From assembly GCA_041650495.1 (NCBI GenBank), contig JBAZLB010000004.1, forward strand, positions 39,281 to 103,280: a stretch of DNA of 64,000 bases, read 5' to 3'. Each line of letters starts with the position of its first letter. Position 1 is the first letter of the stretch. The notes below the pieces were generated by a model. The model had not been told where the DNA came from, made no database searches, and saw nothing but the letters and a program-made list of their open reading frames with translations. This DNA is from Candidatus Omnitrophota bacterium (GTDB lineage Bacteria > Omnitrophota > Gorgyraeia > Gygaellales > Profunditerraquicolaceae). Both the position numbers and the translations under genes were made by a program. Shown piece by piece: positions 1,195 to 38,702 of the stretch.

Positions 1195-1207
1195 ACAGGA
1201 TCAACCG

Positions 1208-7806: not shown

Positions 7807-7820
7807 ATAAACAGCCTAAA

Positions 7821-8828: not shown

Positions 8829-8881
8829 AGGCCCTACGATACCGTCCTTACCATGCAGTGCATTGATAAATACTAACCTAC

Positions 8882-9877: not shown

Positions 9878-11364
9878 GGATATAGTTGATTAACGTCAGT
9901 GCGTTCAGGAGGAGCATCCTCTTCAAATATTTCAAGATCTAAACATGCATAGACCGGGATACCTAAATCCTCACAGTATTTCACTGCGGTGGTATACCTT
10001 TTCTTCCTGACCTTGTAGGTATTTGTACCATCCAAGGTCATCCAATCAGTATATCCGCGTCCATGAAACATGTACTTGTATTTTAACGGCTCCGCCCTGA
10101 GAGCTGAACCAACAGGTGCCCCGCAAATATTCATACTGCATACCCTATCAATATAGGCAACATTTCTCTTGATATACGCTAACGTTTCCTGGAAATCTTC
10201 CTCTGTTTCTCCCGGATACCCGACAATCAATGCAATATCGTTTCTTATCCCCGCCTCTTTACTGAACCTAAGAAATCTTTCAGCCTCAAAGGCGGTATAT
10301 CCTTTGCCCATAAGTGATAAGACATGGTCAGAAAAACTTTCAAGGCCCAGCGAGAACTCCGTACAGCCCGCTTTTCTTAATTTCAGGAATAACTGCGCAT
10401 CAATTTCTGGCCTTATTTGTGCCTGTCCATACCACTTAACCTGCAATCCCTCATCTACAATACAATCACAAAGCTCTTCAAGAAACTTCAGGTCCGCATT
10501 AAATGCTAAATCATTAAGCCTAAAACAGCTATTATTATACCGACTCTGGTTTAAAACCATTTCTCTTAAAACATGGCCTGCCTTCCGGCAACGATAAGGA
10601 TGTGACAATATTCTATCGCTGCAGAATGTGCAGTTTCGAGTACATCCCTTGCTAAATATGAGCGGGAGCGTAAAATCACAACACAGCATTCCTTCCGTAT
10701 ATAAAGATAAATCAAACCCCTCAAATGTAGGAAATGGGACTGCATCAAGGTCAGTAGGAAGCATGGACTTAATGCAGACTGCCCTGTCCCCCGCGTGGTC
10801 CTTCCACACTCTAAAGATACCCCGATCGGATAACCGCAACTTCCCTTTATCCCTTAGGCCGTTCAATATCTCCAGTAATGCAAATTCTCCGTCTCCTATG
10901 ACAAAATAATCTACGTATCCTTTCACAAAGTCATTTTTTCTTATCTCGTCAAAAAATGTTGCCGGCCCGCCGATGACGATTATTTTATCAGGGGCTTTAT
11001 TCTTTAAAATCCTAAGGATTTGATTTAAAAACGGTATGGAGTCCATTGTAGCCGAAAACCCGATAACCGGCATATCATATGATGCTATTGTATCGCCCAT
11101 GCCTTCAAACAACGGCATATGCCCGTTGCTGGACCGACCCGCCTTCCACCAATGGCTATCATTACCGTTCCACCCCCTTTGCAAAACTCCCGAGTTATAC
11201 AGCTCAATATTTAAATCGCGCACCTCTACCATTATGCCCCTTGATTTTAAAAAGGTAGCCAGATACGCTATACCCAAAGGCGCCACCCGATGATCCCAGG
11301 GGGGCAATTGGATCAACAAGATACCGGGTAATTCTTGCCTCCTTTTCTTAAACAGATTCAGCAT
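9874..11364 (-). CDS. B12-binding domain radical SAM protein (class B)
   Basis: 496 aa. The N-terminal Rossmann-like B12-binding region (VIGFSATMD...IIVIGGPATF) is followed by the rSAM core FSKGCTRNCTFCSD (CxxxCxxC). Confidence 0.75.
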   Translation of the reverse strand: MLNLFKKRRQELPGILLIQLPPWDHRVAPLGIAYLATFLKSRGIMVEVRDLNIELYNSGVLQRGWNGNDSHWWKAGRSSNGHMPLFEGMGDTIASYDMPVIGFSATMDSIPFLNQILRILKNKAPDKIIVIGGPATFFDEIRKNDFVKGYVDYFVIGDGEFALLEILNGLRDKGKLRLSDRGIFRVWKDHAGDRAVCIKSMLPTDLDAVPFPTFEGFDLSLYTEGMLCCDFTLPLIFSKGCTRNCTFCSDRILSHPYRCRKAGHVLREMVLNQSRYNNSCFRLNDLAFNADLKFLEELCDCIVDEGLQVKWYGQAQIRPEIDAQLFLKLRKAGCTEFSLGLESFSDHVLSLMGKGYTAFEAERFLRFSKEAGIRNDIALIVGYPGETEEDFQETLAYIKRNVAYIDRVCSMNICGAPVGSALRAEPLKYKYMFHGRGYTDWMTLDGTNTYKVRKKRYTTAVKYCEDLGIPVYACLDLEIFEEDAPPERTDVNQLYP

Positions 11365-11373
11365 GTCTTATTA

Positions 11374-12381
11374 CTATGTGACAGGTTCACAAATTTTAGG
11401 GAAATCTTTTTGGAATTCATCAAAACAATTTATCAGGTGGTGGCAATTCTTTGTACAGCCGGCGATATCATTTCTTACCTTACCTGCTTTTTCTGAGTAC
11501 CAAACGTCTATAAGGCGGTCGCTCTTAATGTTGCCTATGCGTTCAAAATCATAACATAAATAGATATCCCCGACGGAACTGACCAAAACGCACCTATCAA
11601 GATTACACTGCCTTCTTTTCAAGAACTTCTTGGGATTTCTGTAATATGACTGAAAGGCCAGCAGTTGGCTAACGGGATTCCCGATCTTAAAGCCTTTGTT
11701 TTTTAGACGGATAAGCTCTGCGATGATCTGTATAGTCCTGGCTGGATTCTTAGGCCAGATAAACCCTAAATCACCATCCCACCAATTATCTTCGGGAAAA
11801 GTATTATTTGGCTGCATCGCTGCCATAAAATTTATCGAACCGATCCTTTTATCCTGATGAGCCCATTCAACCAAATCTAAGATCGTGTCTTGATTAATTT
11901 CATAAAATACGCAACACAGGTTTATATAGAGACCCTCGCAATAGGTATGAAGATAGGCAATGGCATCCATGGCCCTGCGATACACGCCAGTAACTCCCCT
12001 TAAATGATCGTGGACCTCTTCTTTTATACTATCCAGCGATATGCTTATCGACTTTAGGCCTGAGCCTGCTATCTTGCGAGCCATCTCTTCATCAATAAGA
12101 TACCCGTTGGAAGCTATCGAGGTATTAAAGCCCTTATCGACACTAAAACGGATAACATCTAATATCCCGTCAAACATTAACGCCTCCCCGCCTCCAAGAT
12201 CCAATTCAAATGGAAAATCAACCATCTGAGCTAGATCAGAAATACATTGCTTCCAATGTACAAGAGAGGGGGCCTGAGAGTAGTTCTTGACATAAATGTC
12301 ATCTTTCCATTTATAGCACATTTTACATCGCAGCATACATTTGTCGGTAATACCAAAACAACAAAACCCCGGTTTAATCAT
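11374..12381 (-). CDS. Radical SAM protein, family A
   Basis: FCCFGITDKCMLRCKMCYKW, LGGGEALM, C-terminal CTKNCHHLINC. Confidence 0.8.
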   Translation of the reverse strand: MIKPGFCCFGITDKCMLRCKMCYKWKDDIYVKNYSQAPSLVHWKQCISDLAQMVDFPFELDLGGGEALMFDGILDVIRFSVDKGFNTSIASNGYLIDEEMARKIAGSGLKSISISLDSIKEEVHDHLRGVTGVYRRAMDAIAYLHTYCEGLYINLCCVFYEINQDTILDLVEWAHQDKRIGSINFMAAMQPNNTFPEDNWWDGDLGFIWPKNPARTIQIIAELIRLKNKGFKIGNPVSQLLAFQSYYRNPKKFLKRRQCNLDRCVLVSSVGDIYLCYDFERIGNIKSDRLIDVWYSEKAGKVRNDIAGCTKNCHHLINCFDEFQKDFPKICEPVT

Positions 12382-12410
12382 ACTGACCCCCTCCTAAACA
12401 CATAGCCATG

Positions 12411-13457
12411 CTATATGGAGAATGGCAGATCCCCTTCAAAGAAACAATTGAGAAGAAAATGGCAATTCTGCCTGCAGTTTCTCACCGCTTCACGCGCCAG
12501 TTTAGCTTTATGAGAATACCACAAATATTCTATGCTATCTTTCGTTATATTGCCTAATTTATCTTGTTGGAAACAGATAAACACATCACCGACAGAGCTA
12601 ACATGGATCGCCCTGGATAAATTACACTCTGAAATTTTTATAAACCGCTCAGGGCATATAAAATACCTCCTGAAAGCCTTAAGCTGCGACAGATGATTAA
12701 CGATTTTCCATCCCTTTCTTTTAAGCTCTATCAAACGGCCTATCAGATCATAAACCTGTTTTATCTCCTGGGGCCAGAGATGACTGAAATCTTTTTGATA
12801 CCACCTGGAATCCATACCGGTATTATTCGGCTGCATCACTGCCATAAAATAAATCCAGTCCAAGCGGTTATCTCTTTGCACGCGCTCAGTTAATTCCAGG
12901 ATATCCCCGGCACTTAGGCTGCTTATCACACAACAGATTCCTTTTTGCAGCTCAGGACAGTATGTATCTAAATAGTCGACCGCCAGCATAACTCTTTTAT
13001 AAACCCCCTCAACGCCCCTTAAGTAATCATGGGTTGTATCTTTAAAGCTGTCTAAAGATAAATTTATGGTTGTAAGCCCCGATTCGGCTATTGCCTTTGC
13101 AAGCGGCTCGTCAATCAAGTAGGCATTTGTAGCAATATTGGTCTTCAACCCTATGTTACCGGCAAATCTTACTAGTTCTAACAACTCTTCCATTAAAAAA
13201 GGCTCACCCCCGCCGAAATTAACCGTAAAACCACTGCCCGCTAATTTACGGATAGAGGCGATTGCATTTCTCCAGTCAGTAACCGTAGGATGGTTATTTC
13301 TCGGGGGCAACGCTGACACATCATCTTTCCATTTAAAGCACATCCGGCACTTTAAAGTGCACCGTTCAGTTACGCTCAGGCAGCAAAAATTTGGCCTTGT
13401 CTGCTGACCGGGGAGATTTTCTAGCCATTTAACCGTATTTATGAATAACTTTCGCAC
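12411..13457 (-). CDS. Radical SAM protein, family A
   Basis: CCLSVTERCTLKCRMCFKW, FGGGEPFLM, C-terminal CRQNCHFLLNCFFEGD. Confidence 0.8.
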   Translation of the reverse strand: MRKLFINTVKWLENLPGQQTRPNFCCLSVTERCTLKCRMCFKWKDDVSALPPRNNHPTVTDWRNAIASIRKLAGSGFTVNFGGGEPFLMEELLELVRFAGNIGLKTNIATNAYLIDEPLAKAIAESGLTTINLSLDSFKDTTHDYLRGVEGVYKRVMLAVDYLDTYCPELQKGICCVISSLSAGDILELTERVQRDNRLDWIYFMAVMQPNNTGMDSRWYQKDFSHLWPQEIKQVYDLIGRLIELKRKGWKIVNHLSQLKAFRRYFICPERFIKISECNLSRAIHVSSVGDVFICFQQDKLGNITKDSIEYLWYSHKAKLAREAVRNCRQNCHFLLNCFFEGDLPFSI

Positions 13458-13460
13458 GGG

Positions 13461-14456
13461 CTATTCCTTTTGAATACCGGACGGCAACAAATTTCGTTTG
13501 AACATCTCTTTCAGAATTACGTTTGCAGCTAATTCATGCCCCTTCACATTAGGATGCAAGCCGTCTCCTATGCTTAATTCACCTACCGTAACTTTGGCAT
13601 TGAGAAAAGTAGGAGTCAAATCCAGAGAAGTTATATGCAAGTCTCTGATGATTTCGCGTATATAAGCATACCTGGTATTATCCTGTTCATTATACGGATC
13701 TTTCATGTAGGGGAATACCGCAACAAAAAATGATACCCCTCTTTCGGCTAAAAGGTCCCGCATTCGAGTTAATGATTCCTTGACTATCCGATAGCACTTT
13801 TCCTTCTCATCGAAATTTTCCCGAAAATATAGGAAGAAAATGATGCGCCGGTAAAGATAAGAATATTTAAACAACAATGGATTGATAAAACCAGCCGCAT
13901 CGTTTCGCGGCCAATAGACTACCGGCCTTCCCTTGTCCTTAATCACCACTGGAGTTACCTGAAAATCGTTTAAGCAAAATTGAAGAAGGACTAAGTCGGG
14001 CTTAAAATTAATACACCTCTGCTGTAAAAACGCTAATTCCTGCGCCGTATTATACCCCGGGACCCCGCAATTCCATATCTCAATATGCCCTGTTTTATCC
14101 TTTAAGGCATCTTCGATAAATTTCACATAAGTCATACCGCCGCCGCCGGTAATAGAATCACCTAATGCTATGATCCTGAATTCAGAGGCCTTTTTTTCTA
14201 TAGTTCGTTCCCTGTCAAATATGCCCAATGAATTTACTTTATATCCCCCGCTGCCTCTGCGGGGAATTAACTCATACCCCATAGCTCTAGACGCCTTTAT
14301 AAGAGTTGGAAGATCGGCGCTGTCATGTTTCCATTCTTCACTTGAAGTATCAAAAAATGGTTGGTAACCAATAGGCTGCAGTATCCGGGCACCCGCCTCT
14401 ATAAGCAGAAGCGAGAGAAAAACTGATACCACCGACAATGCAATATTTTGTTTCAC
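13461..14456 (-). CDS. SGNH/GDSL-family hydrolase (secreted or membrane-anchored)
   Basis: Signal-like N-terminus, block I IIALGDSITGGGG, block V IGDGLHPNVKGHELAANVI. The stop lies 4 nt before the upstream rSAM start. Confidence 0.65.
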   Translation of the reverse strand: MKQNIALSVVSVFLSLLLIEAGARILQPIGYQPFFDTSSEEWKHDSADLPTLIKASRAMGYELIPRRGSGGYKVNSLGIFDRERTIEKKASEFRIIALGDSITGGGGMTYVKFIEDALKDKTGHIEIWNCGVPGYNTAQELAFLQQRCINFKPDLVLLQFCLNDFQVTPVVIKDKGRPVVYWPRNDAAGFINPLLFKYSYLYRRIIFFLYFRENFDEKEKCYRIVKESLTRMRDLLAERGVSFFVAVFPYMKDPYNEQDNTRYAYIREIIRDLHITSLDLTPTFLNAKVTVGELSIGDGLHPNVKGHELAANVILKEMFKRNLLPSGIQKE

Positions 14457-14465
14457 GTCTTATCC

Positions 14466-16199
14466 TTATCGTAATATCTTCAACAAAGAGATAAAAGCCC
14501 GCTGCGCCAAATCACTCTCATACTTCAATTGAACTTCCGGGACAGATTTTATTGCACCCGTATCTGCAAAAAGATACTGTAGATCGCCTTTTAATCTCTG
14601 CCGGGTTATTACAATAAGATAATCGTTTTTAGTTACCGCTTGGAGAAAATCCGGGGATGATCTCCAAAAAGTCTCTACCCGGTATTTTTTCTGCAAGAAA
14701 ACCCTGATTAAATGCCCCATACGCATACTCATATCAGCGACCCACATCCCACGGAACCGCGGCGACTCTCCATCAAAAATAATTATACCCGGGACATAGT
14801 TTAAACCGGAATTATTATCATAATCTATGGTTTCGGCAATATGCCTAGCTGCCTCAATAAAATTTGATTTGACAGGCCGATGTGCGATAATCCCTTCTTC
14901 TAAATTCTCAAGGTAATGACGCCGAGAATAAGAAAAATACGAATAAAACAGTACAGTTATTATGCCCAAGGTCACTATGCTGTATTCCTTCCATTGCTGC
15001 TGTTTTAAAAAACGCTCAAGAAAAAAACCTGAACTTAAGGCAAAAAGAGGCAAAAGCGGCACTATAAAACTTCCCCATTTGATATGAAACAGCGTCAAAA
15101 GTATATAGCTCACACAAAACCATACCCCAAAAGATAACCGGGTTTGAAAGGATAACGCCCTGTCCTTCAATAGCCAAACTAAAGATAAGGCCCCGAGCAG
15201 GAAAAATAACGGGGAGGTGTAGTACATTATTTCCATGATGTAGAACAAAAAAGTATTTATGTTTATCCCCGCGTTAATTGTCTGGGTGCACGGACAAAAG
15301 GCATCTTGTGAGGCAAAAAGAAAAAGCTCTTTCCTCCCGTCAGCGACACTGCCGACCCAATTGCTTGATTTGAATACCAGGCTTTTACATGCCTCTATAA
15401 ATCCGTCCTTAAGATTCAAAAAAACATGCGCATAATTATTATCAAAATAAAGACCGAAAAATATCGCTGCAAGAAATAAAAAAATTACCGCATCCAATAT
15501 ATGCCTTGCCCTTAACTTAGGATCCAACAAAACAATCCCCGCGTGTAAACAGAATAAAGGGATAAAGAATACCAGATAAAGTCCTCCCGATAACACGCCG
15601 CAGATAAAAATAAAAGCTAAGAACACGGAGCGCAATACGGCCGGCATATACTTCCAGCGGAGAAAAATAAGTATAGAAATAAGCACAAAGAACGTAACAA
15701 GCAATGCAGAGTTTGTTTTCCGGGAAAGGCCGACCATGCCGGGGTAAAATGATAAGATAAGGGCTGACCTTATTCCTATTTGCTCACTAAAAATAACCTT
15801 GCCGAATATATATGTTGCAACAAGTACCAGCATAAACTGCAAAAATAAAACAATATTGATTAAAAATAATTTATGGCCGCCCGAAAGAGGCGCCATAATA
15901 GGAAAGGCAACGGCTAAAGATGCCAAATTAAAGTTAATTGCGGAGAAGGCATAGCCAAAATGGCTTACTTTTAGGAAATCCATGGTCTTAAATAATTTTT
16001 CCGCCGCAGACAAACGGTCATTAGCGATCATATCGCTATATTCAAATGCATTCTCTTCATGCCATACCGAATAACAGCCGTGCTGTATATAACCATCTTT
16101 TGAAAACCAGAAGATGTTATTGCAGAAAAGAAATAATATGAAAACAGCTGCGCTGATTCTTCTGTCGTGCAGGATTTGCTTAACGCTATTATGCGGCAT
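14466..16199 (-). CDS. Polytopic integral membrane protein; possible GT-C-type (ArnT/PMT-like) glycosyltransferase or polymerase
   Basis: 577 aa with 10 or more hydrophobic helices throughout and a C-terminal soluble region. No catalytic motif was recognised. The call rests only on architecture and context (glycan genes). Confidence 0.35.
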   Translation of the reverse strand: MPHNSVKQILHDRRISAAVFILFLFCNNIFWFSKDGYIQHGCYSVWHEENAFEYSDMIANDRLSAAEKLFKTMDFLKVSHFGYAFSAINFNLASLAVAFPIMAPLSGGHKLFLINIVLFLQFMLVLVATYIFGKVIFSEQIGIRSALILSFYPGMVGLSRKTNSALLVTFFVLISILIFLRWKYMPAVLRSVFLAFIFICGVLSGGLYLVFFIPLFCLHAGIVLLDPKLRARHILDAVIFLFLAAIFFGLYFDNNYAHVFLNLKDGFIEACKSLVFKSSNWVGSVADGRKELFLFASQDAFCPCTQTINAGININTFLFYIMEIMYYTSPLFFLLGALSLVWLLKDRALSFQTRLSFGVWFCVSYILLTLFHIKWGSFIVPLLPLFALSSGFFLERFLKQQQWKEYSIVTLGIITVLFYSYFSYSRRHYLENLEEGIIAHRPVKSNFIEAARHIAETIDYDNNSGLNYVPGIIIFDGESPRFRGMWVADMSMRMGHLIRVFLQKKYRVETFWRSSPDFLQAVTKNDYLIVITRQRLKGDLQYLFADTGAIKSVPEVQLKYESDLAQRAFISLLKILR

Positions 16200-16231
16200 G
16201 GATCGGCCTACTGCGAAGTATGATTATCGTT

Positions 16232-17278
16232 TCATATAACCTGGAACGGATAATCACCTTCAAAAAAACAATTTAAAAGATGATGGCAGTTTCTTTTGCA
16301 ATTTATTATATTATTTCTAACGGCGCATGCCTTCTTAGAATACCAGGCCATAGCCAGGTCATCATGCATGATATTGCCTATCCTTTCCCACTCATAGCAT
16401 ATGTATATATTGCCAATTGCATCCACATGGACTGCGCGATCCAAATTACAGGCTGTCTTCTTTACGAATCTATCGGGGGAATCAAAATATTGTTTAAACG
16501 CTTCCAGCTGACAAAATTGGTTATTTATCTTAGACCCCTGTTTTTTCATCCCGATTAAACGATCTATAACGGTTGTTATCCGTGCGGTATCGTCAGGCCA
16601 TAAATACTGGAATTCTTCCCGGTACCAGCGAGGATTAGGCCTGGTATTATTCGGCTGCATCGCCGCCATAAAATAAACCCATTTAATCCGCGGATGCTTA
16701 TTCACCCATTCCGCAACCGATACAACTTCATCCATATTAATCTTGTATATGACACAACAGATAATAATTTCAAACTCTCCCGGGCAATACTTATCGAGAT
16801 ACTCAATGGCATCCATGACTTTATGGTATACCCCCGGCACTCCACGTAAATAATCATGCGTAGACGGATTCATGCTATCCAGCGAAATATTAATGCTCGA
16901 CAGCCCGGACCTTCCTATTCTGCGAGCCATAGGTTCATCAATCAAGCAAGCGTTGCTGGCGATGTTAGTACGCAAACCGTTCTCTGCAGCAAAATGCACG
17001 ATATCCAATAGCCCTTCTAATAGAAGCGCTTCCCCCCCGCCAAAGTTTATAAGAAAATCCCTGCCCGCTATTGAGCGCAACGACGATATAGCTCTTTTCC
17101 ATAAGGTTATATCCGGTTTCGGTATGTCCCTGGGGACATTAAGGTCGGGTCTCCACTTTTGACACATTTTGCAGCGTAAAAAACACTCATCGACTACGCC
17201 AAAACAACAGAAACCAGGCCTTAATGTAGCCCGGAAATCCATCTTGACATCCTCGCTGCTATTGATTTGTCCGCTCAT
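16232..17278 (-). CDS. Radical SAM protein, family A
   Basis: FCCFGVVDECFLRCKMCQKW, FGGGEALLL, C-terminal CKRNCHHLLNCFFEGD. This is the closest paralog of 12411..13457. Confidence 0.8.
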   Translation of the reverse strand: MSGQINSSEDVKMDFRATLRPGFCCFGVVDECFLRCKMCQKWRPDLNVPRDIPKPDITLWKRAISSLRSIAGRDFLINFGGGEALLLEGLLDIVHFAAENGLRTNIASNACLIDEPMARRIGRSGLSSINISLDSMNPSTHDYLRGVPGVYHKVMDAIEYLDKYCPGEFEIIICCVIYKINMDEVVSVAEWVNKHPRIKWVYFMAAMQPNNTRPNPRWYREEFQYLWPDDTARITTVIDRLIGMKKQGSKINNQFCQLEAFKQYFDSPDRFVKKTACNLDRAVHVDAIGNIYICYEWERIGNIMHDDLAMAWYSKKACAVRNNIINCKRNCHHLLNCFFEGDYPFQVI

Positions 17279-17293
17279 GGAAGATATATTATC

Positions 17294-18502
17294 CTAAAAC
17301 CACTCCACCGTGGCTAAGGTTTTCAACAGCCTGACTTGTACTGGGCTGAGTTTATTTATCTTTTGATGCATGATCATATTCCTTCCTAAGTCATCGCAAC
17401 TTTTATAACAACCGATTTTCTTACCGGGGTCATTGCCTATAAAAGAAAGTAAATCATGGTCTTTTACTTTCGACTGCATGCATCTGCGGAACATCCGCTG
17501 TTTTGCATTATTCCATATTTTATCAAAATTATCTTTGTATAAATTCCCTATCGGGATCCTATGTGATTTAAGGCAGGAATTGACATTGCCATCAGCCAAA
17601 ACCCGGGCAAAAAGCCACCCAACATAACAGGGGATACTATCAATAAAACCGCGGTCATACTCTGCGGCACCTGCGTATTCGCTCTCTACGCGCCTCATAA
17701 ATTGTTCAAAATTAGAAATAATCAGCCGGCCTTTCTGAGTACAATATTCCTTATTCTCTTTCATAAGCCTGCACATCGCCAAGACATCATCAGCTTGGCC
17801 CTGCTGAAATAATAACGTATCGGTACACCCGGGGATAGTATCAACTACAGTAAATTCAACTTCTTCAGAAGCTGTTTCCAAGCAAAACTCGGCCATTTTA
17901 AGCAATTCTTGGTAATTTAAGTTAGAGATGACATTATAGATCTTTACTTTAGGAAAACACCCCTTGGTTCTATTGAGCAAGGTGAGTAGCTGCCTTATGC
18001 GTATAAAGTCATCCTGCGTTTTATTAGGATGTGTTTTTACATAAGTTTCCGCTGTAGCCGCCCATAAGCTTACAACAAGATAATCGAGTTTTATCCGTTT
18101 GAATGCCGCTAACATATCTTCGTCCACTAAAGTAAAATTTGTATGTAGGTGACACTTAAATCCCCGTTTCTTAGCATAAGAGATTATCTCTATGGCCGCC
18201 GGGTGCATTAAAGGTTCCCCTCCCCCGCTGAAATATAATTCCGCAGTATGCATTTTCTTAAGGGTATCTATCAAGCGTTTAGCCACTCGGTAATCAATAC
18301 TCTGCCGTTTAACGGCTTGGGGGGTCGCTTTATCTTTCAGTAATGGCGAGTTACACCAACAGGCAATGCAATTATTGTTGCAGTCATTCGTTAAATCAAT
18401 CTGGACGCAATCCGGCCCTTTATACGCATATTCGCCATTAAATATGCCCATAATAGTCATGGCGTTTCTTAGTGTCTTGCCGCAAATGAGGCTTTTATTC
18501 AT
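17294..18502 (-). CDS. Radical SAM protein, family B-like (402 aa, SPASM-like C-terminus)
   Basis: DLTNDCNNNCIACW (CxxxCxxC), FSGGGEPLMHP. The C-terminus IPCYVGWLFARVLADGNVNSC...GCYKSCDD is alignable to the C-termini of 3534..5261 and 21179..22636. Confidence 0.7.
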   Translation of the reverse strand: MNKSLICGKTLRNAMTIMGIFNGEYAYKGPDCVQIDLTNDCNNNCIACWCNSPLLKDKATPQAVKRQSIDYRVAKRLIDTLKKMHTAELYFSGGGEPLMHPAAIEIISYAKKRGFKCHLHTNFTLVDEDMLAAFKRIKLDYLVVSLWAATAETYVKTHPNKTQDDFIRIRQLLTLLNRTKGCFPKVKIYNVISNLNYQELLKMAEFCLETASEEVEFTVVDTIPGCTDTLLFQQGQADDVLAMCRLMKENKEYCTQKGRLIISNFEQFMRRVESEYAGAAEYDRGFIDSIPCYVGWLFARVLADGNVNSCLKSHRIPIGNLYKDNFDKIWNNAKQRMFRRCMQSKVKDHDLLSFIGNDPGKKIGCYKSCDDLGRNMIMHQKINKLSPVQVRLLKTLATVEWF

Positions 18503-18518
18503 GCCATCAGGGATACTT

Positions 18519-20981
18519 TTATTGTTGAATATTCAGTAAATACTTTATGCTTTTTATGACGGTACGCACAAAACCTTTTGATTTTATATTATTCCTAAAG
18601 GCAACCCGTAATTCCCGGTCAAACGGTATATTATAGAAAGAGCGCCGCGAGCGCATATAGTATTTCCACTTCTTCAATGCTTCGTCTTTGGCATGTTCTA
18701 AATCTTCCGGAGAAAGAAATTCGGTTCTGATGACGCTTCTTGATGCCCCGTCATAACAAGACCAGTCTTTCGAGATAATATGCCCCTTCTTTTCCAGCGC
18801 CTCATAATATTCTGTCCCCGGGTAAGGAGTCATAATGGAGAACTGCAGGGAATCAGGCTTAAAACTTAACGCGTAGTCTATTGTCCTTTTTATGGTATCC
18901 TGTGTTTCCCCGGGCAGGCCAAAGGCAAAAGTGAGGTGTATCTTTATCCCTAAGGCTTGAGTCGCATATATCATACGTTCCGCATGCCGCAAATCCATGC
19001 CCTTCTTCGCGTTATCAAGCAGCTTCTGTTCTGCGGACTCTAATCCATACTTTACTGCGTATAATCCGGATTGTTTCATCGCAAGAAGCATTTCTTCATC
19101 CATAGTATCCGCGCGGGCCATAATCGCCCAAGGCACAACCAAGTTTCTCTCCCGGATCTCCCCGCAAAACTTTAATACATTTTCTTTGTCAATATTGAAG
19201 GTATCATCGTCAAAATAAATCGACTTAAAATTACGTTCTTTTACCAGGTATTCCATCTCATCGACAACAGCGGCGGGACTGCGGACCCGGTAGCGGTTGC
19301 TATTATACATGAGCTGCGGCCAGGCGCAAAAAATGCATTGGAAAGGACACCCCCGGCTTGCAACCATCTGAACACTAGGAAAAGCGATCTTCCCGGGCGC
19401 ATCTTTATACCGTTCCATACATAATTGTTCTCTTAATGGCCATGGCAAATCATCCAAATCCTCAAGTAAGGCTCGCGCAGGGGTGATCCTGACAGTATTG
19501 TTTTCCCGATAAAGGATTCCTGATACGCCCTGCAGACTTCTGCCGTTCTGTATGGCTTGGAATAATTCAAATGCCGCGTATTCATATTCACCGACAATAA
19601 CAAAATCTATAAAATTGTTCTCGGCCAGGAAAGATGGCTGCCTGATATTAAAGTCTAGCCCGCAAACAGCTATTTTTGTATGTTTTCCTGATATTTGCTT
19701 TAAGATTTCCAGGTCATTCTTCAAAGAGGGGGTAGAGACCTCCGCAACCAACAGTTCCGGCTCAAGCTCATTCACCAGCCTTACAAATTCTCCTTCTTCG
19801 ATCTGCTCAGCTATGGCGTCAATTATTCTTACGCTAACGCCTCTTTCCAAAAAGACAGCTGCGGAATAAGCCAAAAAGAACGGGAAAGGAAGATACGCCT
19901 CTTCGCCAGCGTCTTTTATATGCGGCCATCGAGACCCTGCCCTGACTCCCCATCTATTCCCCTGTTTCCAAGGCAGGTTTATTAACACTACCTTCACAGG
20001 CTTTAGGACATTCGTTAAATATTTCTTATTCATCTTCTCTTCTATGAATGGCAGCCGTTGGCGGTATAATCTCTTCTTGGAATCAAGCATATGTTGATCG
20101 ATTATTTTTTCATCTTGAATTATGTGTATGCTATTTGACAAAATATTCCGGCTCATGCCAGCCGCATAAAAATCCCGCGGACTATGCGGCTTAACCTGAA
20201 TTAATAATGCGCGTAAATTCGCGCTATAATCACTATTCCTGATAATAGGCCTTATGTCTTCCTTTGGGCTATCCGCCTCCAAAATAATCGCTGGTTTATA
20301 CTCATTATTGCAAAACGTGCTCCGCACTCCCAAAGAACGCGAGGAAAGATTCCAAAAATTTATATCCTGCCATCCTTCTTGCGTAGGTTTTATCGGTGGA
20401 AATGTCCCCCCTTCATAAGAACTTATCCAGCCGGTATAATCTGAAGATACCAAAAGAGCCGCTTCCTTTTCTCCGAGAGAAATATTTCTTTTAGGGGTTA
20501 TGTCTATCTTCCAATCGATAAGCCTCTCTCCTTGCACCGTAATCTGCCAAGACTGTTTAAGCGCAAAGAAAGGCCAGGTGAGTATTATTTCCGTATAACA
20601 AGGCAAAACACGTAGTACCTCCCAGCGCGCCTGATTCGAATATAGCCTGCCGCGCATAAAACGCTTATCATTCAGCACAGTTACAAAACCCGGGGCTTGA
20701 GTAAGCTTTATGTCATTCCAAAATAAATCTATACACCTACGCGCAGGATGAATCGATAACTTTAATCTACCGGCAATTAATAATATTGTCCGGGCGTCTT
20801 CTTGGCAACCAAGCTTAGAACTAATAAACCGCGAGAATATATACCGCAGGCCACCATTACCTATGGTATAGACGATAAACGCAAAGGCGCGATAAAAAGC
20901 ATAGAACACCCCCTTATGGCGAAGGTAATATAAGAATCTTCCGGCTATAAAATTGATAAATCCTTGTTTATGTATTTTCAT
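18519..20981 (-). CDS. B12-binding radical SAM protein (class B) with ~330-aa N-terminal domain of unknown function
   Basis: 820 aa. A B12-binding-like region (VLINLPW...IAVCGLDFN) is followed by ASRGCPFQCIFCAWP (CxxxCxxC). The N-terminal third has no recognisable motif. Confidence 0.7.
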   Translation of the reverse strand: MKIHKQGFINFIAGRFLYYLRHKGVFYAFYRAFAFIVYTIGNGGLRYIFSRFISSKLGCQEDARTILLIAGRLKLSIHPARRCIDLFWNDIKLTQAPGFVTVLNDKRFMRGRLYSNQARWEVLRVLPCYTEIILTWPFFALKQSWQITVQGERLIDWKIDITPKRNISLGEKEAALLVSSDYTGWISSYEGGTFPPIKPTQEGWQDINFWNLSSRSLGVRSTFCNNEYKPAIILEADSPKEDIRPIIRNSDYSANLRALLIQVKPHSPRDFYAAGMSRNILSNSIHIIQDEKIIDQHMLDSKKRLYRQRLPFIEEKMNKKYLTNVLKPVKVVLINLPWKQGNRWGVRAGSRWPHIKDAGEEAYLPFPFFLAYSAAVFLERGVSVRIIDAIAEQIEEGEFVRLVNELEPELLVAEVSTPSLKNDLEILKQISGKHTKIAVCGLDFNIRQPSFLAENNFIDFVIVGEYEYAAFELFQAIQNGRSLQGVSGILYRENNTVRITPARALLEDLDDLPWPLREQLCMERYKDAPGKIAFPSVQMVASRGCPFQCIFCAWPQLMYNSNRYRVRSPAAVVDEMEYLVKERNFKSIYFDDDTFNIDKENVLKFCGEIRERNLVVPWAIMARADTMDEEMLLAMKQSGLYAVKYGLESAEQKLLDNAKKGMDLRHAERMIYATQALGIKIHLTFAFGLPGETQDTIKRTIDYALSFKPDSLQFSIMTPYPGTEYYEALEKKGHIISKDWSCYDGASRSVIRTEFLSPEDLEHAKDEALKKWKYYMRSRRSFYNIPFDRELRVAFRNNIKSKGFVRTVIKSIKYLLNIQQ

Positions 20982-21044
20982 TATGATAAAAAGGCGGTGT
21001 CTATGTTTAACTTTTTGCAGATTCTTTGTGCTTTATCTTATCTT

Positions 21045-21107
21045 TCAACCCACAAGAACCCTATCCGCCACATAATATACTTTAAGCCCCGGTAAAAAGA
21101 GTAACAT
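21045..21107 (-). CDS. Candidate 20-aa small ORF (MLLFLPGLKVYYVADRVLVG) in the only sizeable intergenic gap of the rSAM array
   Basis: ATG preceded by GAGGG at -6 to -10. It lies in the 197-bp gap between the family-B rSAM and the class-B rSAM. There is no Cys and no homolog support. It is a speculative precursor-peptide or leader candidate. Confidence 0.15.
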   Translation of the reverse strand: MLLFLPGLKVYYVADRVLVG

Positions 21108-21178
21108 AAGCCGCCCTCTTTATAATGCTTTTTCCATCTCTGCAATAGTGTTTCTCGCATGGTAAGTATATTTATTTA

Positions 21179-22636
21179 TTACAGGAACTTCTCCAGCGAG
21201 TATCTTTTAATAATCTTGAGCATATGAAGATGCTGATTAATGTTCTCGCAGGAATGGCATTTGTCATCAAATAACTCTTCTCCGCGGACAAACCTAGTCC
21301 CTCCTTCCTGTTCTAAACGTTTTGCTGCAATTCGATACGAATTGTACTCATCAGAGAACCATATAGTATCAAAATCAGATCTTTGCAAGCTGCCGACCAT
21401 TTTGTTTCCGCAGCAAAAAAGAACCTCCCCTGCCGCCTGGATGTTACAGAATACCCACCCTGTTAAGCACCCGTTATCTTTAAAAAAATCCTTCGTCCTT
21501 AACCCATCGCGGTTGTTATAGTAATCCAAATAAATAGTGGATAAATGATCTGTCCTGATCCCGTGGTTTTCTAATTTTTTTATTGACGCTGGCAAGTTAG
21601 TCTTGAGATAATCAACCTGCGGTTCGGTTAATTTAAGATAAGCATTGTGTCCTTCAATCTGAATTGGTTTAAATGTCACCGCATCGACCCCAAGGTCAAT
21701 ATCCATATCCACAAAGCTTGACAAATCGTAACAATTAAGACTATGTATGACATGGGTTATCTGAATCTGGGTCGTCCCTTTTGAGGTGTTTTTATATTCT
21801 ACAAGCGACCTTATATTATGCCTGATCTTTTCAAAATCGCTCATTGGGCTCATTGGGCAGATTTGATGGTATCGCAGCCTAGAGGCAGCAGGAAGGCTAA
21901 CCGTAACAATAGCTATTCCGGAATCAACCATCAGTTTTGAAAGCGCATCATTCATAAAAACCCCGTTGGTCACTGTCTCAAACCCCAAGCCATTATCCCG
22001 GCAGATACGGATAGCATCTTTTATATTCGGGTGCATCAGCGGTTCGCCGTTGGCAAGCAGGCTTATCTGTCGTGTACCTATTTTCTTCGCCCTCACTGCA
22101 ATATTTCTAAACATATCGATACCCATCGTCTGCCGGAGATAGGCGATATCTTTCTCCTGGGTACTCGGCGCATGAATCCAACAATGCAAACAATTAGTAT
22201 TGCATCTATGCAACAAGTCAACGACAACTAAAGACGGGCCGATAAACGTATCTTCACAAATAGCGCCTAGCGCCATTAAAACATCCTGCCTGGTATCGTC
22301 ATCAGTCTCTTTTATCTTGCTTAGACCTAAAAGCAGCTGCGCCAATTCCCGGTCATCCAATAGAATTTGGATACAAAATTTGGAAAGCCTGGCATTCATT
22401 GTACTGATATATTCCATCCAACGCATTAGTATATTATCCGTAGGAAAGACTGAGAAAGGATCGACCTCCTCCACTGCGGGCATTCTTTCGCGTAACAAGC
22501 AATCCAGTCTTAAGAAATTGTATTTATTCGCTCGCAATAATCCTGCCGCTGTTTTGTAAAAACCGCCCTTACTATTAAGGGTACAATGAGAACGCTCTGC
22601 AAATTTGAGGTATCGTGCGGATAAACCAGGCAACAT
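21179..22636 (-). CDS. Radical SAM protein, family B (SPASM-like) with N-terminal extension
   Basis: LHRCNTNCLHCW (CxxxCxxC), ANGEPLMHP. The C-terminus is GCLTGWVFCNIQAAGEVLFCCGN...DDKCHSCEN. Its N-terminal region is alignable to the N-terminus of 3534..5261 (AEHAFIGPQT / CEDTFIGPSL). Confidence 0.75.
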   Translation of the reverse strand: MLPGLSARYLKFAERSHCTLNSKGGFYKTAAGLLRANKYNFLRLDCLLRERMPAVEEVDPFSVFPTDNILMRWMEYISTMNARLSKFCIQILLDDRELAQLLLGLSKIKETDDDTRQDVLMALGAICEDTFIGPSLVVVDLLHRCNTNCLHCWIHAPSTQEKDIAYLRQTMGIDMFRNIAVRAKKIGTRQISLLANGEPLMHPNIKDAIRICRDNGLGFETVTNGVFMNDALSKLMVDSGIAIVTVSLPAASRLRYHQICPMSPMSDFEKIRHNIRSLVEYKNTSKGTTQIQITHVIHSLNCYDLSSFVDMDIDLGVDAVTFKPIQIEGHNAYLKLTEPQVDYLKTNLPASIKKLENHGIRTDHLSTIYLDYYNNRDGLRTKDFFKDNGCLTGWVFCNIQAAGEVLFCCGNKMVGSLQRSDFDTIWFSDEYNSYRIAAKRLEQEGGTRFVRGEELFDDKCHSCENINQHLHMLKIIKRYSLEKFL

Positions 22637-25518
22637 TATGAGCAGTCTCCAAGCATTATTTCACCGTGAAAATAGTGATACTTACCTTCTGCCAGTTTTT
22701 GCTTATCCGTGGCGTTGATACTCTCAAATCCCAACTTTCTGCTTTTGAAGATACGATTTGTATTCTCCACGGTTGCAGTGATGCCGCCAGGGCCGCTAAA
22801 GCAGGAAAAGGACAGGCCGGGTAAAATATCCGCTCCTTGCCCCTGCTGTTTGATGCCAGCGCTCAAGCGGTCAATCTCATCCCGGGCATAAAGAATATCC
22901 CACCGCGATACAGCATAACTATCCGGGAATGATCCGGACATATTATCAGCCGCACGCCAATGGTTATAGATACCGGAAAGCATAATATTAGCCTGTTGTT
23001 TTATTATTGTGGTTGATTCAAAAATCTCCATTTCGACATCCCAAATGAAACCATTTGTTTTATTTTTAACCTCCCATACCTGCACCAAAGGGATATATGG
23101 CCACGTCCCTCGCAGTAACAAACTGTCCTTACGGGAAGCGATTATCTCCCAGCTGGCATCCAAAGAAACGTACCACTGGCCCTGGTTGTTATGTCCTTTC
23201 GAGTAAACCGAGGTATAGAGACCAAAGGCGCTGGTAATTTCTTCGTTGCGATGCTTTATTCTCCCGTTCCCCCGGTCAAAAATAAATATATACGGACCAT
23301 TCTCAATGGTTGATCTTTTACGTACGGACGGGGCAAGACACGAAGATAATTCAACGCCTCTTTTCTCTATAATATACCCCTTCAGATCGGGCTCCGTGCC
23401 AATGGTTATTGAGAAATCCCCGGCTAAATATGAACCTTTAAAATAATTTATTGATTCTTTTGAATCTATACTCATAAAATAAAGGTGGTTTGCTAACTCA
23501 GTATTTCCTGAGGCATCTGCGAATACAGTCGCATTCCAGTCTAACTTTCTTTCCAGAGAATTAAATTTAGGGGGCCGGGAAGCGTCATGTATCAATACCG
23601 CCGGTAAAGCTGCGTTATCCTGCCCTGATGATGTCAAACCAAGGATATGCAGCAAATCATTCTTCATGAGCGTACTCTTAAAATCCTGACCGGTTATATC
23701 TTCACCTGTATCACCGGACTCACTACTGGTAAACCATCCCCGGTAATCCGCAGAAAACATTACTCGAAATTCATTGTTTCTAATTACCGTGTCTTCTAAA
23801 ATCACTAAGCGGACCTGGCAAGTAATGGTATTGTTACCTGCGATTTTAAAATCCCATATTTGTTGTATAGGTAACCCCGGCCATCTGATATAAACCGAAA
23901 GGCGGGCTGCAGAGACCCGGTGTATCATCCAGAAGGCATCGGAACTCTGGTATTCCTTACCTTGGTAATAAAAACTGGTTTTAAACCCCTTTCCGGCGGT
24001 TATCTTTGCCCCTCTCCAGTATAAATGGATCATCTTGTCATTATATGCATGTAACAATACAGTATCGTCCTTGCCTTGAATAATCTTAGGCAACATTAAT
24101 TTAGGAAAATTCTGGAGCCTATGAGTAAGTAAACGTTTGTTTCCAACCATAATTTTCAAGTGAAACAACGTACTTTTTCCGGATTCAAGACTCAAAGATT
24201 GCGCATCAGGATTGATAATACGGGATTGCAAAGCCCGGGCCATAAATACCTGGTTGGTATTATGGACTTCTAATAATTTAGTATCGGTATACACCTCGTC
24301 TATGAAAGCGATCGATGGTAATTGGGAACTAGGCCCTCCAGGCGCATTCAAGCCGATGAAATTAACAGCCGGTATTTGTTTGTCCGCGCATTGCCAAAAA
24401 ATCTCCTCTCTCAAATCGCTTGTCTCAAAGCACCCATTTATGAAAGGATTGAACCACTGCCTATATTCATCCCTTAACATGATACAGGCCGTAAATTCGT
24501 CAATTACACACGCCTGGCGAATATTCATTTCTATTACACAGTCGATTACACCCGCATCATTATCAAAGTATATTTCCCATACCTGCGAAAGCGGTAAATG
24601 CCACATTGTCCCTTCCACAACTATCTTGCTATCATCCCGTTTTCTTAACAGCCAATCTGCCTGAAAAGAACAGTGCTGGTTACCTGCGCTTAATATGGAT
24701 ATGTACCCTCCCAATCCGGCAGTTATTGTATCCTGGCCGAAACTAAACGAGAGTTTCCCATTATTAAAAATAACGCCCAATGAGTCCTTTTGGAGCATGG
24801 CGATGCCCCGCTTATCACCTACCGTCTCCAGGTAATATGAACAAACCTCCCTGATCCCTCCGTCTTGAACCACCTTTCCGTCTTTAAGTAAGACCCCCCT
24901 GGAACAAAAACGTTTCGCTATTTCTAAATTATGAGTAACCAGGATTATCGATTTCCCTTTCTCCTTGAGTTTAAGCATCCTGTCTATGCATTTACGCTGC
25001 GCATACAAATCACCCACAGCAAAGATGTCATCGATCAATAGGATGTCCGGCTCAATGTGTATCGCTATAGCAAACGCCAAGCGCATATACATGCCTTGTG
25101 AATAACTCTTCACGGGCGCATTAATAAACCTACCGAGGGCGGCAAACTCTACTATATCATTAAACCGTGATTTTATCGCATGCTTAGCAAGGCCGAACAG
25201 TGATGAAATAAGGTAAATATTCTCTTTGCCCGTTAACTCCGCATGGAATCCTGCCCCGATATTAAGAAGCGGGGCGATCGTCCCATTGATAAAAACACTG
25301 CCTGTATCAGGCTTAAACATACCGGCGATTATCTTAAGAAGAGTGGTTTTGCCAGCGCCGTTATCGCCGATAATACATACACTCTCTCCTCTTGGAATAT
25401 CTAACGTTACTCCCTGCAATGCCCAGAAGTCTTCCGGGAAGATTTTGTTATCTTCTTTAAAGTCTATTCTGTATTTTAAACCCACGCCCCTTAAAGATAC
25501 TGCATTCATCGATCTCAT
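22636..25518 (-). CDS. ABC transporter ATP-binding protein, Wzt/TagH-like, with ~700-aa C-terminal triple-repeat domain
   Basis: The N-terminal ~240 aa carry Walker A GDNGAGKTTLLK, the signature-region LSGGMYMR-like block YSQGMYMRLAFA, and Walker B ILLIDD. The remaining ~700 aa hold three divergent ~200-aa repeats each containing a W..P.(L/I).Q(V/I)W(E/D) core. The gene start overlaps the upstream stop by 1 nt. Confidence 0.75.
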   Translation of the reverse strand: MRSMNAVSLRGVGLKYRIDFKEDNKIFPEDFWALQGVTLDIPRGESVCIIGDNGAGKTTLLKIIAGMFKPDTGSVFINGTIAPLLNIGAGFHAELTGKENIYLISSLFGLAKHAIKSRFNDIVEFAALGRFINAPVKSYSQGMYMRLAFAIAIHIEPDILLIDDIFAVGDLYAQRKCIDRMLKLKEKGKSIILVTHNLEIAKRFCSRGVLLKDGKVVQDGGIREVCSYYLETVGDKRGIAMLQKDSLGVIFNNGKLSFSFGQDTITAGLGGYISILSAGNQHCSFQADWLLRKRDDSKIVVEGTMWHLPLSQVWEIYFDNDAGVIDCVIEMNIRQACVIDEFTACIMLRDEYRQWFNPFINGCFETSDLREEIFWQCADKQIPAVNFIGLNAPGGPSSQLPSIAFIDEVYTDTKLLEVHNTNQVFMARALQSRIINPDAQSLSLESGKSTLFHLKIMVGNKRLLTHRLQNFPKLMLPKIIQGKDDTVLLHAYNDKMIHLYWRGAKITAGKGFKTSFYYQGKEYQSSDAFWMIHRVSAARLSVYIRWPGLPIQQIWDFKIAGNNTITCQVRLVILEDTVIRNNEFRVMFSADYRGWFTSSESGDTGEDITGQDFKSTLMKNDLLHILGLTSSGQDNAALPAVLIHDASRPPKFNSLERKLDWNATVFADASGNTELANHLYFMSIDSKESINYFKGSYLAGDFSITIGTEPDLKGYIIEKRGVELSSCLAPSVRKRSTIENGPYIFIFDRGNGRIKHRNEEITSAFGLYTSVYSKGHNNQGQWYVSLDASWEIIASRKDSLLLRGTWPYIPLVQVWEVKNKTNGFIWDVEMEIFESTTIIKQQANIMLSGIYNHWRAADNMSGSFPDSYAVSRWDILYARDEIDRLSAGIKQQGQGADILPGLSFSCFSGPGGITATVENTNRIFKSRKLGFESINATDKQKLAEGKYHYFHGEIMLGDCS

Positions 25519-28277: not shown

Positions 28278-29100
28278 CTAGCAGGCAATAAAAGGTAAGT
28301 GGAGCAATATGCTGAATAATGATTCGTTCTTAATAATCGTTCGATAGCGGTTTTTTATTAAATCAGCGTACAATTCATTGCTAAGATATCTGCGTGCATA
28401 CGTTTTATTGATGCCCGACGCCGTCCGGACGCTGGCACCACGCATATGGTACGCCACAGCATCAGGTATATAATAAGCCTTCCAGCCCATATTGTAAGCC
28501 CGCCAAGCGATATCTAAATCCTAATAAAAGAATCGAAAGTCACTATCAAAATATTCAACCCCCATTTTGAGGTCTTCCAGCATCGCTCTACGATAAAAAG
28601 CAACTGCTCCGCTTACTCCGAATATATACCCTGCGCGATTGTAAAGTTGCCCTTTTTTAGTGCCGTAGCCCCTTTCCCGGACTGAACGATACAGATTCAA
28701 CGATAATCCGGTACTATCTAACGTTATCCCGTCAAAACGAAAGACTTTGCCATCCACCATGCCAATCTTTGAGCTAACAGTAAAACCAATAATTGCTTTT
28801 TCAATAAATTTTTCATCTAAAATGACATCGTCATTAAGACAAAGAATAAAGTCCCCGTTACTCTGGCTGATTCCACAATTTAACCCTACGCAGTAGGATT
28901 TTTTCTCGGCATCCGTATACACAGTAACTTCCGGATAATGACGGTGTATGCTTTGGCTGACCTCGGGGTTACATGCATTATCAACAACGATGATTTCGTG
29001 AAAAGAGTGTGTCTGGACACATAATGAGTCTCAACATGATTCCCAGCAACGAAATGCTCCGGAGGTAACAACAATACTTACTTTCCTGTTTGAGCCTTCC
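28278..29100 (-). pseudogene. Disrupted GT2-family glycosyltransferase (three or more frame fragments)
   Basis: Three consecutive minus-strand ORF fragments in different frames. The 5-prime piece starts MTQEGSNRKVSIVVTS..., the middle piece has LNCGISQSNGDFILCLNDDVILD (DxD region), and the 3-prime piece has GWKAYYIPDAVAYHMRGAS (GT2 C-terminal motif). Confidence 0.6.
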
Positions 29101-32147: not shown

Positions 32148-32228
32148 AAAAAACCGCCACCTGACTTTAAAAGCCAGATGGCGGCCCGACCATCCAAGTC
32201 CTCCGGAAATATACCCTTCCGGACCCTT
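32148..32228 (-). terminator. Conserved two-hairpin element, copy A; distal hairpin plus U6 is an intrinsic terminator for treT
   Basis: Minus-strand RNA: hairpin UCCGGAA-GGGUAUA-UUCCGGA, then conserved core GAUGGUCGGGCCGCCAUCU, then hairpin CCGCCAUCUG/CAGGUGGCGG (10 bp with 1 G-U) followed by UUUUUUAUU. Confidence 0.7.
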
Positions 32229-38338: not shown

Positions 38339-38419
38339 AAAAACCACCACCTGCATTCATATGCAAGATGGCGGCCCGACCATCTTAAAAATAACCTCTG
38401 GAGGCAGCTATCTCCAGAC
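38339..38419 (-). terminator. Conserved two-hairpin element, copy B; terminator downstream of the tRNA-Val/tRNA-Asp unit
   Basis: Same architecture as copy A, with an identical 19-nt core (gatggcggcccgaccatc on the plus strand). The flanking hairpins are conserved in structure with compensatory changes (UCUGGAG/CUCCAGA; CCGCCAUCUUGC/GCAGGUGGUGG), followed by UUUUUGAUUU on the minus strand. Confidence 0.65.
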
Positions 38420-38702
38420 CACTTATTATCTTAATCGTTGCAGATATCATTATACATCAAACAGGCACTTTTACAATCTCCTTGTTATCTTAGATTACAA
38501 GGCGTTTGTTTGTTCCTCATCAACCCTGTTATTCTTTGATATCAAAGGGGGTAAGAACTTATTTTCCGATTATTTTCTATAAAATCTTACGGCCAAATTG
38601 TGGCCGGCCGGGGACCAAAAATATGCTAAGATGCCGCCTATCCCCATGATTATCTACAAACAGGAAATCCCCGAAATTGCTTACGGGGATTAGTGTTATA
38701 TA

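Follow-up and report, generated by a model that had tools for sequence, protein, structure and literature searches.

We describe here an ATP-binding cassette (ABC) transporter ATPase of the Wzt type in which three tandem beta-supersandwich domains stand in the position of the usual carbohydrate-binding domain (CBD). Its gene (22636..25518, reverse strand) lies in a 64,000-nucleotide stretch of DNA, hereafter the window, from a Candidatus Omnitrophota bacterium (GenBank assembly GCA_041650495.1, contig JBAZLB010000004.1, positions 39,281 to 103,280). In the window's listing of open reading frames (ORFs), it is a single ORF of 960 amino acids (aa), and it is followed by a block of radical S-adenosylmethionine (radical SAM, rSAM) enzyme genes, one of which carries a fourth copy of the same domain. 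We propose, at odds only a little better than even (a probability of roughly 0.55), that the array is a non-catalytic glycan-recognition module that replaces the usual CBD, is shared with other proteins of the pathway, and couples glycan tailoring to export.

The identical database entry is a protein from a Candidatus Omnitrophota metagenome-assembled genome (MAG), named only "ABC transporter ATP-binding protein". While the type of transporter and the fold superfamily are known already, the domain family, its tandem arrangement where the CBD would be, its presence on rSAM enzymes and GT-C glycosyltransferases as well, and the fusion of all three elements (ATPase, units, and rSAM enzyme) in one chain are new as far as we have searched. 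A literature search returned nothing joining Wzt with mutarotase, and no description of this architecture was found in the literature on Wzt C-terminal domains, on rSAM enzymes in O-antigen clusters, or on Omnitrophota.

A triplicated extension on a Wzt-type ATPase

The extension that follows the ATPase core is a true triplication. A self-BLAST of the protein gave the identity match only, as the repeats are too divergent, and thirds of the extension were instead aligned pairwise with the Smith-Waterman algorithm and compared with shuffled sequences. Scores of 114, 166, and 135 were obtained for the three unit pairs, versus shuffled means of ~31 (z = 19.4, 24.7, and 22.2), and none of 300 shuffles reached them. 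An earlier reading of this DNA, made from the sequence alone (the sequence-only reading), had called for such a check after proposing three repeats of ~200 aa in an extension of ~700 aa. The triplication itself is upheld (z 19-25), while the sizes are revised to units of ~230 aa (range ~225-245 aa) in an extension of 725 aa. The motifs quoted in that reading were recovered at aa 307, 548, and 808 for the three repeats, and at aa 51 (Walker A, GDNGAGKT) and aa 159 (Walker B, ILLIDD) for the ATPase. Units delimited by hidden Markov model (HMM; boundaries in Table 1) share 18-26% identity over profile columns, and three repeats are present in all seven non-identical close homologs recovered by a word-index search.

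The same reading had identified the N-terminal part as a Wzt-like ABC ATPase, and this is well supported. Pfam ABC_tran (PF00005) matches aa 34-165 (E 4.5e-19), and the best NCBIfam matches of the core are TagH (4.8e-57 and 2.4e-46) and galactan Wzt/RfbE (1.4e-44), all of which score under their equivalog cut-offs (194 versus 538 bits for TagH). The best solved relative is Wzt of Aquifex aeolicus (8DKU and 7K2T, E 4e-60), with structures of TarH/TagH also matching the core (E 1e-40 to 1e-50). Query aa 24-244 align with residues 28-251 of the 404-residue A. aeolicus chain, an alignment that covers the hinge helix (as defined in PMC9445017) and ends where the A. aeolicus CBD starts. The helix at aa 222-232 aligns with this hinge helix and is followed by a low-confidence linker (aa 233-238) and then by unit 1, from aa 239. 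By this alignment, the extension is attached where the canonical CBD is attached, directly past the hinge helix. The gene immediately upstream encodes a full-length homolog of A. aeolicus Wzm (aa 16-256, E 1.5e-19). On this homology, the ATPase and the adjoining permease form a Wzm/Wzt pair, with the export of a lipid-linked glycan as its putative function.

Fold and sequence signature of the unit

Structure prediction for unit 3 yielded a high-confidence model (predicted local distance difference test score [pLDDT] 92.6, predicted template modeling score [pTM] 0.90), and comparison of the predicted structure with known folds identified an 18-strand galactose-mutarotase-like supersandwich. Its neighbors comprise accessory domains of carbohydrate-active enzymes (CAZymes, here glycoside hydrolases, phosphorylases, and lyases; GH36 [9AWT], GH174 [8JD7], GH38, GH94, and domain 5 of GH2) and aldose 1-epimerases, and its relatives also include OpgD, OpgG, and the P1 domain of YidC. 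Identity to the CAZyme domains and epimerases is only ~5-12%, and most of the fold relatives are carbohydrate-associated. A match to a known unrelated domain would have counted against the sequence-only reading, but the fold matched is a carbohydrate-associated one. The model of the full-length protein was of lower confidence (pLDDT 76.6, pTM 0.42), and the linkers at aa 233-238, 472-476, and 724-733 scored low.

Sequence searches gave no family assignment for the unit. Pfam matched no family on any of 24 single units at E up to 10 (Aldose_epim included) and nothing in aa 240-960 when the whole protein was searched, no NCBIfam model fell on the extension, and comparison of PDB sequences with the extension, queried singly and as a profile of 24 units, produced chance-level matches only. 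In particular, neither the whole protein (E up to 1) nor any of the 24 units (E up to 10) was matched by PF14524 (Wzt_C), and no canonical Wzt CBD jelly roll is among the structural matches listed for the unit. The suggestion that the repeats are copies of the canonical Wzt carbohydrate-binding module therefore does not hold: PF14524 is missing, the A. aeolicus CBD is not aligned, and the fold is a supersandwich and not a jelly roll. The extension is instead predicted to be a different fold at the CBD position, as opposed to a triplicated CBD.

Across 329 units, conservation is highest in columns occupied by P, W, Y, T, W, F, W, G, S, G, Q, R, N, and W, and the conserved classes are accordingly aromatic (Trp, Tyr, and Phe) and polar (Thr, Ser, Gln, Arg, and Asn). 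None of the top 25 conserved columns in this set is a His, Asp, or Glu, and the acid/base residues of aldose 1-epimerases (catalytic His and Glu) are not conserved in the 329 units. Such an aromatic and polar signature, lacking conserved His, Asp, or Glu, fits binding better than catalysis.

The units within an array are not alike in how well they keep this signature. In the window protein, unit 3 carries the complete signature as T762, G766, W782, S785, W790, Q813, W815, Y851, W854, G862, F864, P900, N919, and R927. Unit 2 has T604, A676, D668, and E522 in place of F, R, N, and W, respectively, and the possibility that the three units are equivalent was rejected on the loss of these 4 of 14 signature residues. 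In a nearest-neighbor analysis of the 329 units, a first unit was most like other first units, and a last unit most like other last units regardless of how long their arrays are, a pattern of positional orthology. Conservation at the 12 tabulated signature positions is 0.90-0.97 in last units, 0.65-0.97 in first units, and 0.49-0.89 in middle units, where it is lowest at R, N, W, and S (0.49-0.61). Judged by these values, the C-terminal unit is the most constrained and the first nearly so, while the middle units are relaxed. Because unit 2 has lost signature residues and middle units are relaxed across the family, it is somewhat unlikely that the array presents three equivalent heads reading a multiply modified terminus, as had been envisaged from the sequence alone.

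An uncatalogued domain family, mostly in Omnitrophota

An exhaustive HMMER search with the unit profile retrieved 656 cluster representatives at E up to 1e-3, including 330 at E up to 1e-30, with 1 to 9 matched stretches per protein. Of the 157 sequences retrieved, 98 combine the core of a Wzt ATPase with 1 to 5 full-length units behind it, and copy number in the family ranges from 1 to at least 7 units per protein. The related-locus search relied on full-length alignment and on retrieval through ATPase motifs, and covered the best 80 of 285 loci. Among GTDB species genomes, 32 of the 49 full-length relatives kept are labeled Omnitrophota, 13 are labeled "uncultured Planctomycetia" or "Planctomycetales", and 4 are labeled otherwise. 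By these matches, the domain constitutes an uncatalogued family, with no Pfam or NCBIfam entry, that resides mostly in Omnitrophota MAGs. The unit profile could be used to annotate several hundred protein clusters.

Some family members have arrays of unusual composition. The longest noted (P0059, 2,244 aa) has an ATPase and at least 7 recognizable units in 9 matched stretches, with a gap at aa 1108-1600, and a 6-unit ATPase gene occurs in another locus (L043, 7989..12989). In three further ATPase-bearing proteins (P0136, P0138, and P0145), some units are separated by 340-550 aa of sequence that has no match to the unit, the nucleotide-binding domain, or the rSAM profile and that may consist of additional units that have diverged or of domains of another kind.

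Linkage to radical SAM enzymes and glycosyltransferases

Downstream of the ATPase, eleven rSAM proteins are encoded in one co-directional block (3534..22636, reverse strand). Eight are of the SPASM type (one with N-terminal tetratricopeptide repeats [TPR], 5218..7806), two have a B12-binding domain, and one has neither accessory domain recognized; none of the 11 reaches an NCBIfam cut-off. The stop codon of the ATPase gene and the ATG of the first rSAM/SPASM gene overlap by 1 nucleotide (TAATG, 22634..22638), which suggests translational coupling. A scan of all window ORFs with the unit profile revealed the fourth copy of the domain in a B12-binding rSAM gene two genes downstream of the ATPase, the only one of the 11 rSAM genes to bear a copy. 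The best NCBIfam match of its catalytic part, below the cut-off, is HpnJ (E 5e-78), for which a ring contraction of glucosamine in a lipid-linked sugar has been proposed (PMC9204698).

The association extends to other loci. Of 38 Wzt loci that bear the repeats and have 1.4 kb or more of downstream sequence, 37 contain rSAM ORFs (median 3, maximum 9), compared with 1 of 31 control Wzt loci matched through the ATPase core only (Fisher P = 3e-17), a statistic that ignores phylogeny and draws its controls from other phyla. In at least 12 loci, the next gene is an rSAM enzyme with its own copy of the domain. The domain is also found N-terminal to rSAM/SPASM enzymes (P0139, P0127, and P0050), fused to a double rSAM protein (P0086), and C-terminal to GT-C glycosyltransferases of the PMT_2 family (P0019, P0102, P0121, P0109, P0141, and P0103). 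In two proteins, the ABC ATPase, the units, Radical_SAM, and SPASM are all joined in one chain (P0034, with 5 units, and P0150, with 2 units). The rSAM tails of these two are 37-47% identical over ~500 aa to the last rSAM/SPASM gene of the window block (3534..5261) and 28-30% identical to the first (21179..22636). A link between the ATPase and rSAM tailoring enzymes had been proposed from the window sequence, and the fourth copy, the rSAM/SPASM and triple fusions, and the distribution among loci strongly support a connection between the array and rSAM chemistry. The PMT_2 fusions have 4-13 hydrophobic segments with no consistent parity (by a crude hydropathy count), and sequence comparison found no solved homolog for them.

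Homologous loci further place the array in a glycan context. In three of them, a Glycos_transf_4 gene lies one or two genes upstream of Wzm, and these loci also hold GT4, GT2, Wzy_C, PMT_2, and sugar aminotransferase genes; the PMT_2 gene in one (L001) carries a copy of the domain. For its part, the window has a GT1 gene (1208..2389), a broken GT2 gene (28521..28922), SGNH/GDSL genes, and genes for TPR proteins.

Proposed role and comparison with known systems

We infer a role in glycan recognition because the array sits at the CBD position, adopts a fold associated with carbohydrates, bears a signature of aromatic and polar residues that lacks catalytic acid/base residues, and is shared with enzymes that would act on the same polymer. 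In the proposed mechanism, the three tandem cytoplasmic beta-supersandwich domains would take the place of the small CBD on a Wzm/Wzt-type exporter ATPase and, by retaining a lipid-linked, rSAM-tailored glycan where the transporter opens to the cytoplasm, couple export to tailoring. On the ATPase, the array would bind the tailored, lipid-linked glycan and deliver it to the Wzm channel, and the copies on rSAM and GT-C enzymes would tether these to the same substrate. Tailoring enzymes and exporter would thereby meet on a single polymer by means of one common substrate handle. In view of the graded constraint along the array, the main site of function and binding is probably the C-terminal unit, with the middle units adding reach or avidity, probably as spacers or low-affinity avidity sites.

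More tentatively, and at odds well short of even, the domain may represent a new glycan-recognition family that reads rSAM-modified sugars and acts as a pathway-wide handle on the exporter ATPase and on rSAM/SPASM, B12-rSAM, and GT-C enzymes, making it a glycan counterpart of the RiPP recognition element (RRE; RiPP, a peptide that is ribosomally synthesized and then modified post-translationally). If so, Omnitrophota would use it to order the tailoring, export, and later transfer of a heavily radical-modified surface glycan that is chemically undescribed. The likeness to RREs on rSAM/SPASM maturases is one of logic only, in that enzymes belonging to one pathway have an N-terminal recognition domain in common and thereby reach the same substrate. 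Leader peptides are the ligands of RREs, which are small winged-helix domains, whereas the present domain is a beta-supersandwich of ~230 aa, occurs in a glycan export context, and is also carried by the exporter.

The closest known system is the WzmWzt O-antigen transporter (A. aeolicus, 7K2T/8DKU; Escherichia coli O9a; Raoultella terrigena), with which the window pair shares a homologous ATPase (E 4e-60) and permease (E 1.5e-19), an additional cytoplasmic beta-rich module right past the hinge helix, a probable location among glycan genes and, presumably, the logic by which export is gated and a glycan must first be recognized as finished or modified. The canonical Wzt CBD is a single jelly roll of ~150 aa that forms a strand-swapped dimer (PMC9445017), whereas here there are three supersandwich domains of ~230 aa each, which match neither Wzt_C nor the A. 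aeolicus CBD in sequence. The module is moreover common to exporter and tailoring enzymes. We know of no description of canonical CBDs being shared with tailoring enzymes. TagGH/TarGH is a further point of comparison, as TagH is the best NCBIfam match of the ATPase core (E 4.8e-57), but the window protein falls far short of the cut-off (194 versus 538 bits), comes from an Omnitrophota MAG, and carries an extension with no relation to TagH. In contrast to the mutarotase-like accessory domains of CAZymes, the units are arrayed in tandem in the cytoplasm on an ABC ATPase, occur on rSAM enzymes as well, and do not lie beside a glycosidase catalytic domain, and they differ from aldose 1-epimerases in that the acid/base residues are not conserved.

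Export of the Wzm/Wzt O-antigen type has so far been understood through one recognition domain, the small jelly-roll CBD, by which a terminal cap is read. The present locus would provide a second, structurally unrelated solution, in which arrays of one to at least seven domains are widespread in uncultured Omnitrophota. The shared module also offers a testable handle on the coupling of glycan tailoring to export and on the role of large rSAM sets in glycan clusters.

Competing explanations

Several observations weigh against glycan recognition by the array. The full-length model, with its pTM of 0.42, gives no defined arrangement of the domains, and the conserved unit residues may be core residues as opposed to a binding site. 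No initiating Glycos_transf_4 gene lies within the 64-kb window, the contrast in rSAM content between repeat-bearing and control loci could partly reflect the phylogeny that it ignores, and SPASM rSAM enzymes more often act on peptides.

The occurrence of one domain on both the ATPase and the enzymes could also reflect protein-protein scaffolding, in which ATPase copies pair with rSAM or GT-C copies, or dock the enzymes, to build a tailoring-export complex without contact to the glycan. Triple fusions imply that physical proximity has been selected for, the YidC P1 domain uses the fold for protein contacts, canonical Wzt CBDs dimerize (PMC9445017), and the middle units are relaxed, as spacers would be. 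Nonetheless, most rSAM genes in these clusters lack a copy (1 of 11 in the window has one), and the ATPase and enzyme copies share one signature, as is expected of a common ligand and not of complementary protein interfaces. With most fold relatives being carbohydrate-associated, and with some PMT_2 fusions placing the domain in another compartment if their C-termini are periplasmic, we consider a scaffold unlikely. The relaxed middle units would also suit a structural spacer or ruler, setting a distance from the membrane or measuring chain length, with copy number (1 to at least 7) tuning its length. ATPases that are otherwise similar do differ in copy number (1 to 6 or more), the units are joined by short helices and by linkers of low confidence, and coiled-coil rulers act in other ABC-transporter-dependent glycan systems. 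This explanation is nevertheless quite improbable, since a pure spacer needs no 14-residue signature kept at 0.90 or more in terminal units and leaves the one or two N-terminal copies on soluble rSAM enzymes unexplained.

We give still less credence to the units being enzymes that act on the glycan before export (a mutarotase or epimerase, or a trimming hydrolase or lyase), which seems very improbable. The fold does include OpgD and OpgG, now regarded as glucanases, and lyases can use residues such as the conserved Tyr, Arg, Asn, and Gln for catalysis, yet the 25 most conserved columns hold no His, Asp, or Glu, neither Aldose_epim nor any other Pfam family was matched, and a tandem array whose middle copies are relaxed is more typically a feature of binding modules. 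Finally, the cluster could make an rSAM-modified peptide (RiPP) or another non-glycan product, exported by the ABC-2 pump and bound by the domains as a peptide. Several window rSAM genes have peptide or cofactor maturases as their best sub-threshold NCBIfam matches, and an N-terminal domain on rSAM/SPASM enzymes resembles the architecture of RiPP pathways, of which N-terminal recognition domains on such enzymes are typical. However, the ATPase and permease are closest to Wzt/Wzm and TagH/TarG and not to peptide exporters, and homologous loci have Glycos_transf_4 directly upstream of Wzm along with GT4, GT2, Wzy_C, and PMT_2. The domain is also fused to GT-C glycosyltransferases, and the only sizeable gap in the cluster holds a GT2 fragment and no evident precursor peptide, such that a peptide product is a remote prospect.

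Gene features and surroundings of the cluster

The coordinates of the ATPase, its units, and the associated genes are collected in Table 1. As all close homologs in the alignment have MNA.. as their N-terminus, the true start of the ATPase is probably M4 (nucleotide 25509) and not the ATG at 25518.

Table 1. Features of the exporter and tailoring gene cluster (window coordinates)
Feature	Position	Strand	Remarks
Wzt-type ABC ATPase with triple domain extension, whole gene	22636..25518	-	960 aa; Pfam, NCBIfam, homologs, and A. aeolicus Wzt match
Nucleotide-binding domain, aa 1-235	24814..25518	-	Walker A aa 51-58, Walker B aa 159-164, helix aa 222-232
Repeat unit 1, aa 239-474, galactose-mutarotase-like	24097..24804	-	13/14 family signature residues
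Repeat unit 2, aa 478-723, divergent middle unit	23350..24087	-	10/14 signature residues; has an insertion
Repeat unit 3, aa 735-960, C-terminal	22639..23316	-	14/14 signature residues; unit modeled, pLDDT 92.6
Wzm-type ABC-2 permease partner, 260 aa	25535..26317	-	Pfam ABC2_membrane; A. aeolicus Wzm, E 1.5e-19
rSAM/SPASM gene, ATG overlapping the ATPase stop	21179..22636	-	Paralog of domain-fused rSAM/SPASM tails, 28-30% identity
B12-binding rSAM enzyme with fourth copy, 820 aa	18519..20981	-	Catalytic part closest to HpnJ
Fourth domain copy, aa 67-304 of the B12-rSAM protein	20070..20783	-	hmmsearch E 2e-31; 13/14 signature residues
Rest of tailoring block	5218..18502	-	Eight rSAM genes (SPASM or B12 type, one with TPR), GDSL/SGNH gene, orphan 577-aa ORF
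rSAM/SPASM gene	3534..5261	-	37-47% identical over ~500 aa to rSAM/SPASM tails fused behind arrays, including P0034 and P0150

The upstream edge of the cluster is marked by the apparently broken GT2 gene (28278..28922, reverse strand), of which a 133-aa piece matches only positions 65-167 of Glycos_transf_2 and a second piece of 70 aa lies in another frame. No precursor ORF or RNA was evident in the gap that it occupies (28.1-29.7 kb), and Rfam returned no family within the cluster. Unrelated housekeeping genes follow past 29.6 kb. Within the rSAM block, the 577-aa ORF (14466..16199, reverse strand) has no Pfam or NCBIfam match, and SGNH/GDSL genes are located among the rSAM genes at 13461..14456 and 2502..3458. 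Adjoining the GT1 gene, an ORF that runs off the start of the window (1..1200, reverse strand; 400 aa visible) has no Pfam match.

Outside the cluster, two nhaA-I RNAs (RF03057), which we take to be Na+ riboswitches, scored above the gathering threshold (32176..32226 and 38366..38421, both on the reverse strand). One lies upstream of genes for an Rnf-Nqr subunit and a CitMHS transporter, and the other is upstream of MscS and a trehalose synthesis operon (GT20, trehalose phosphatase, DUF5752, and TreT). G+C content is ~0.41 over the first 40 kb and steps up to 0.46-0.51 for the remainder of the window, at about position 40000 and near genes for a V/A-type ATPase.

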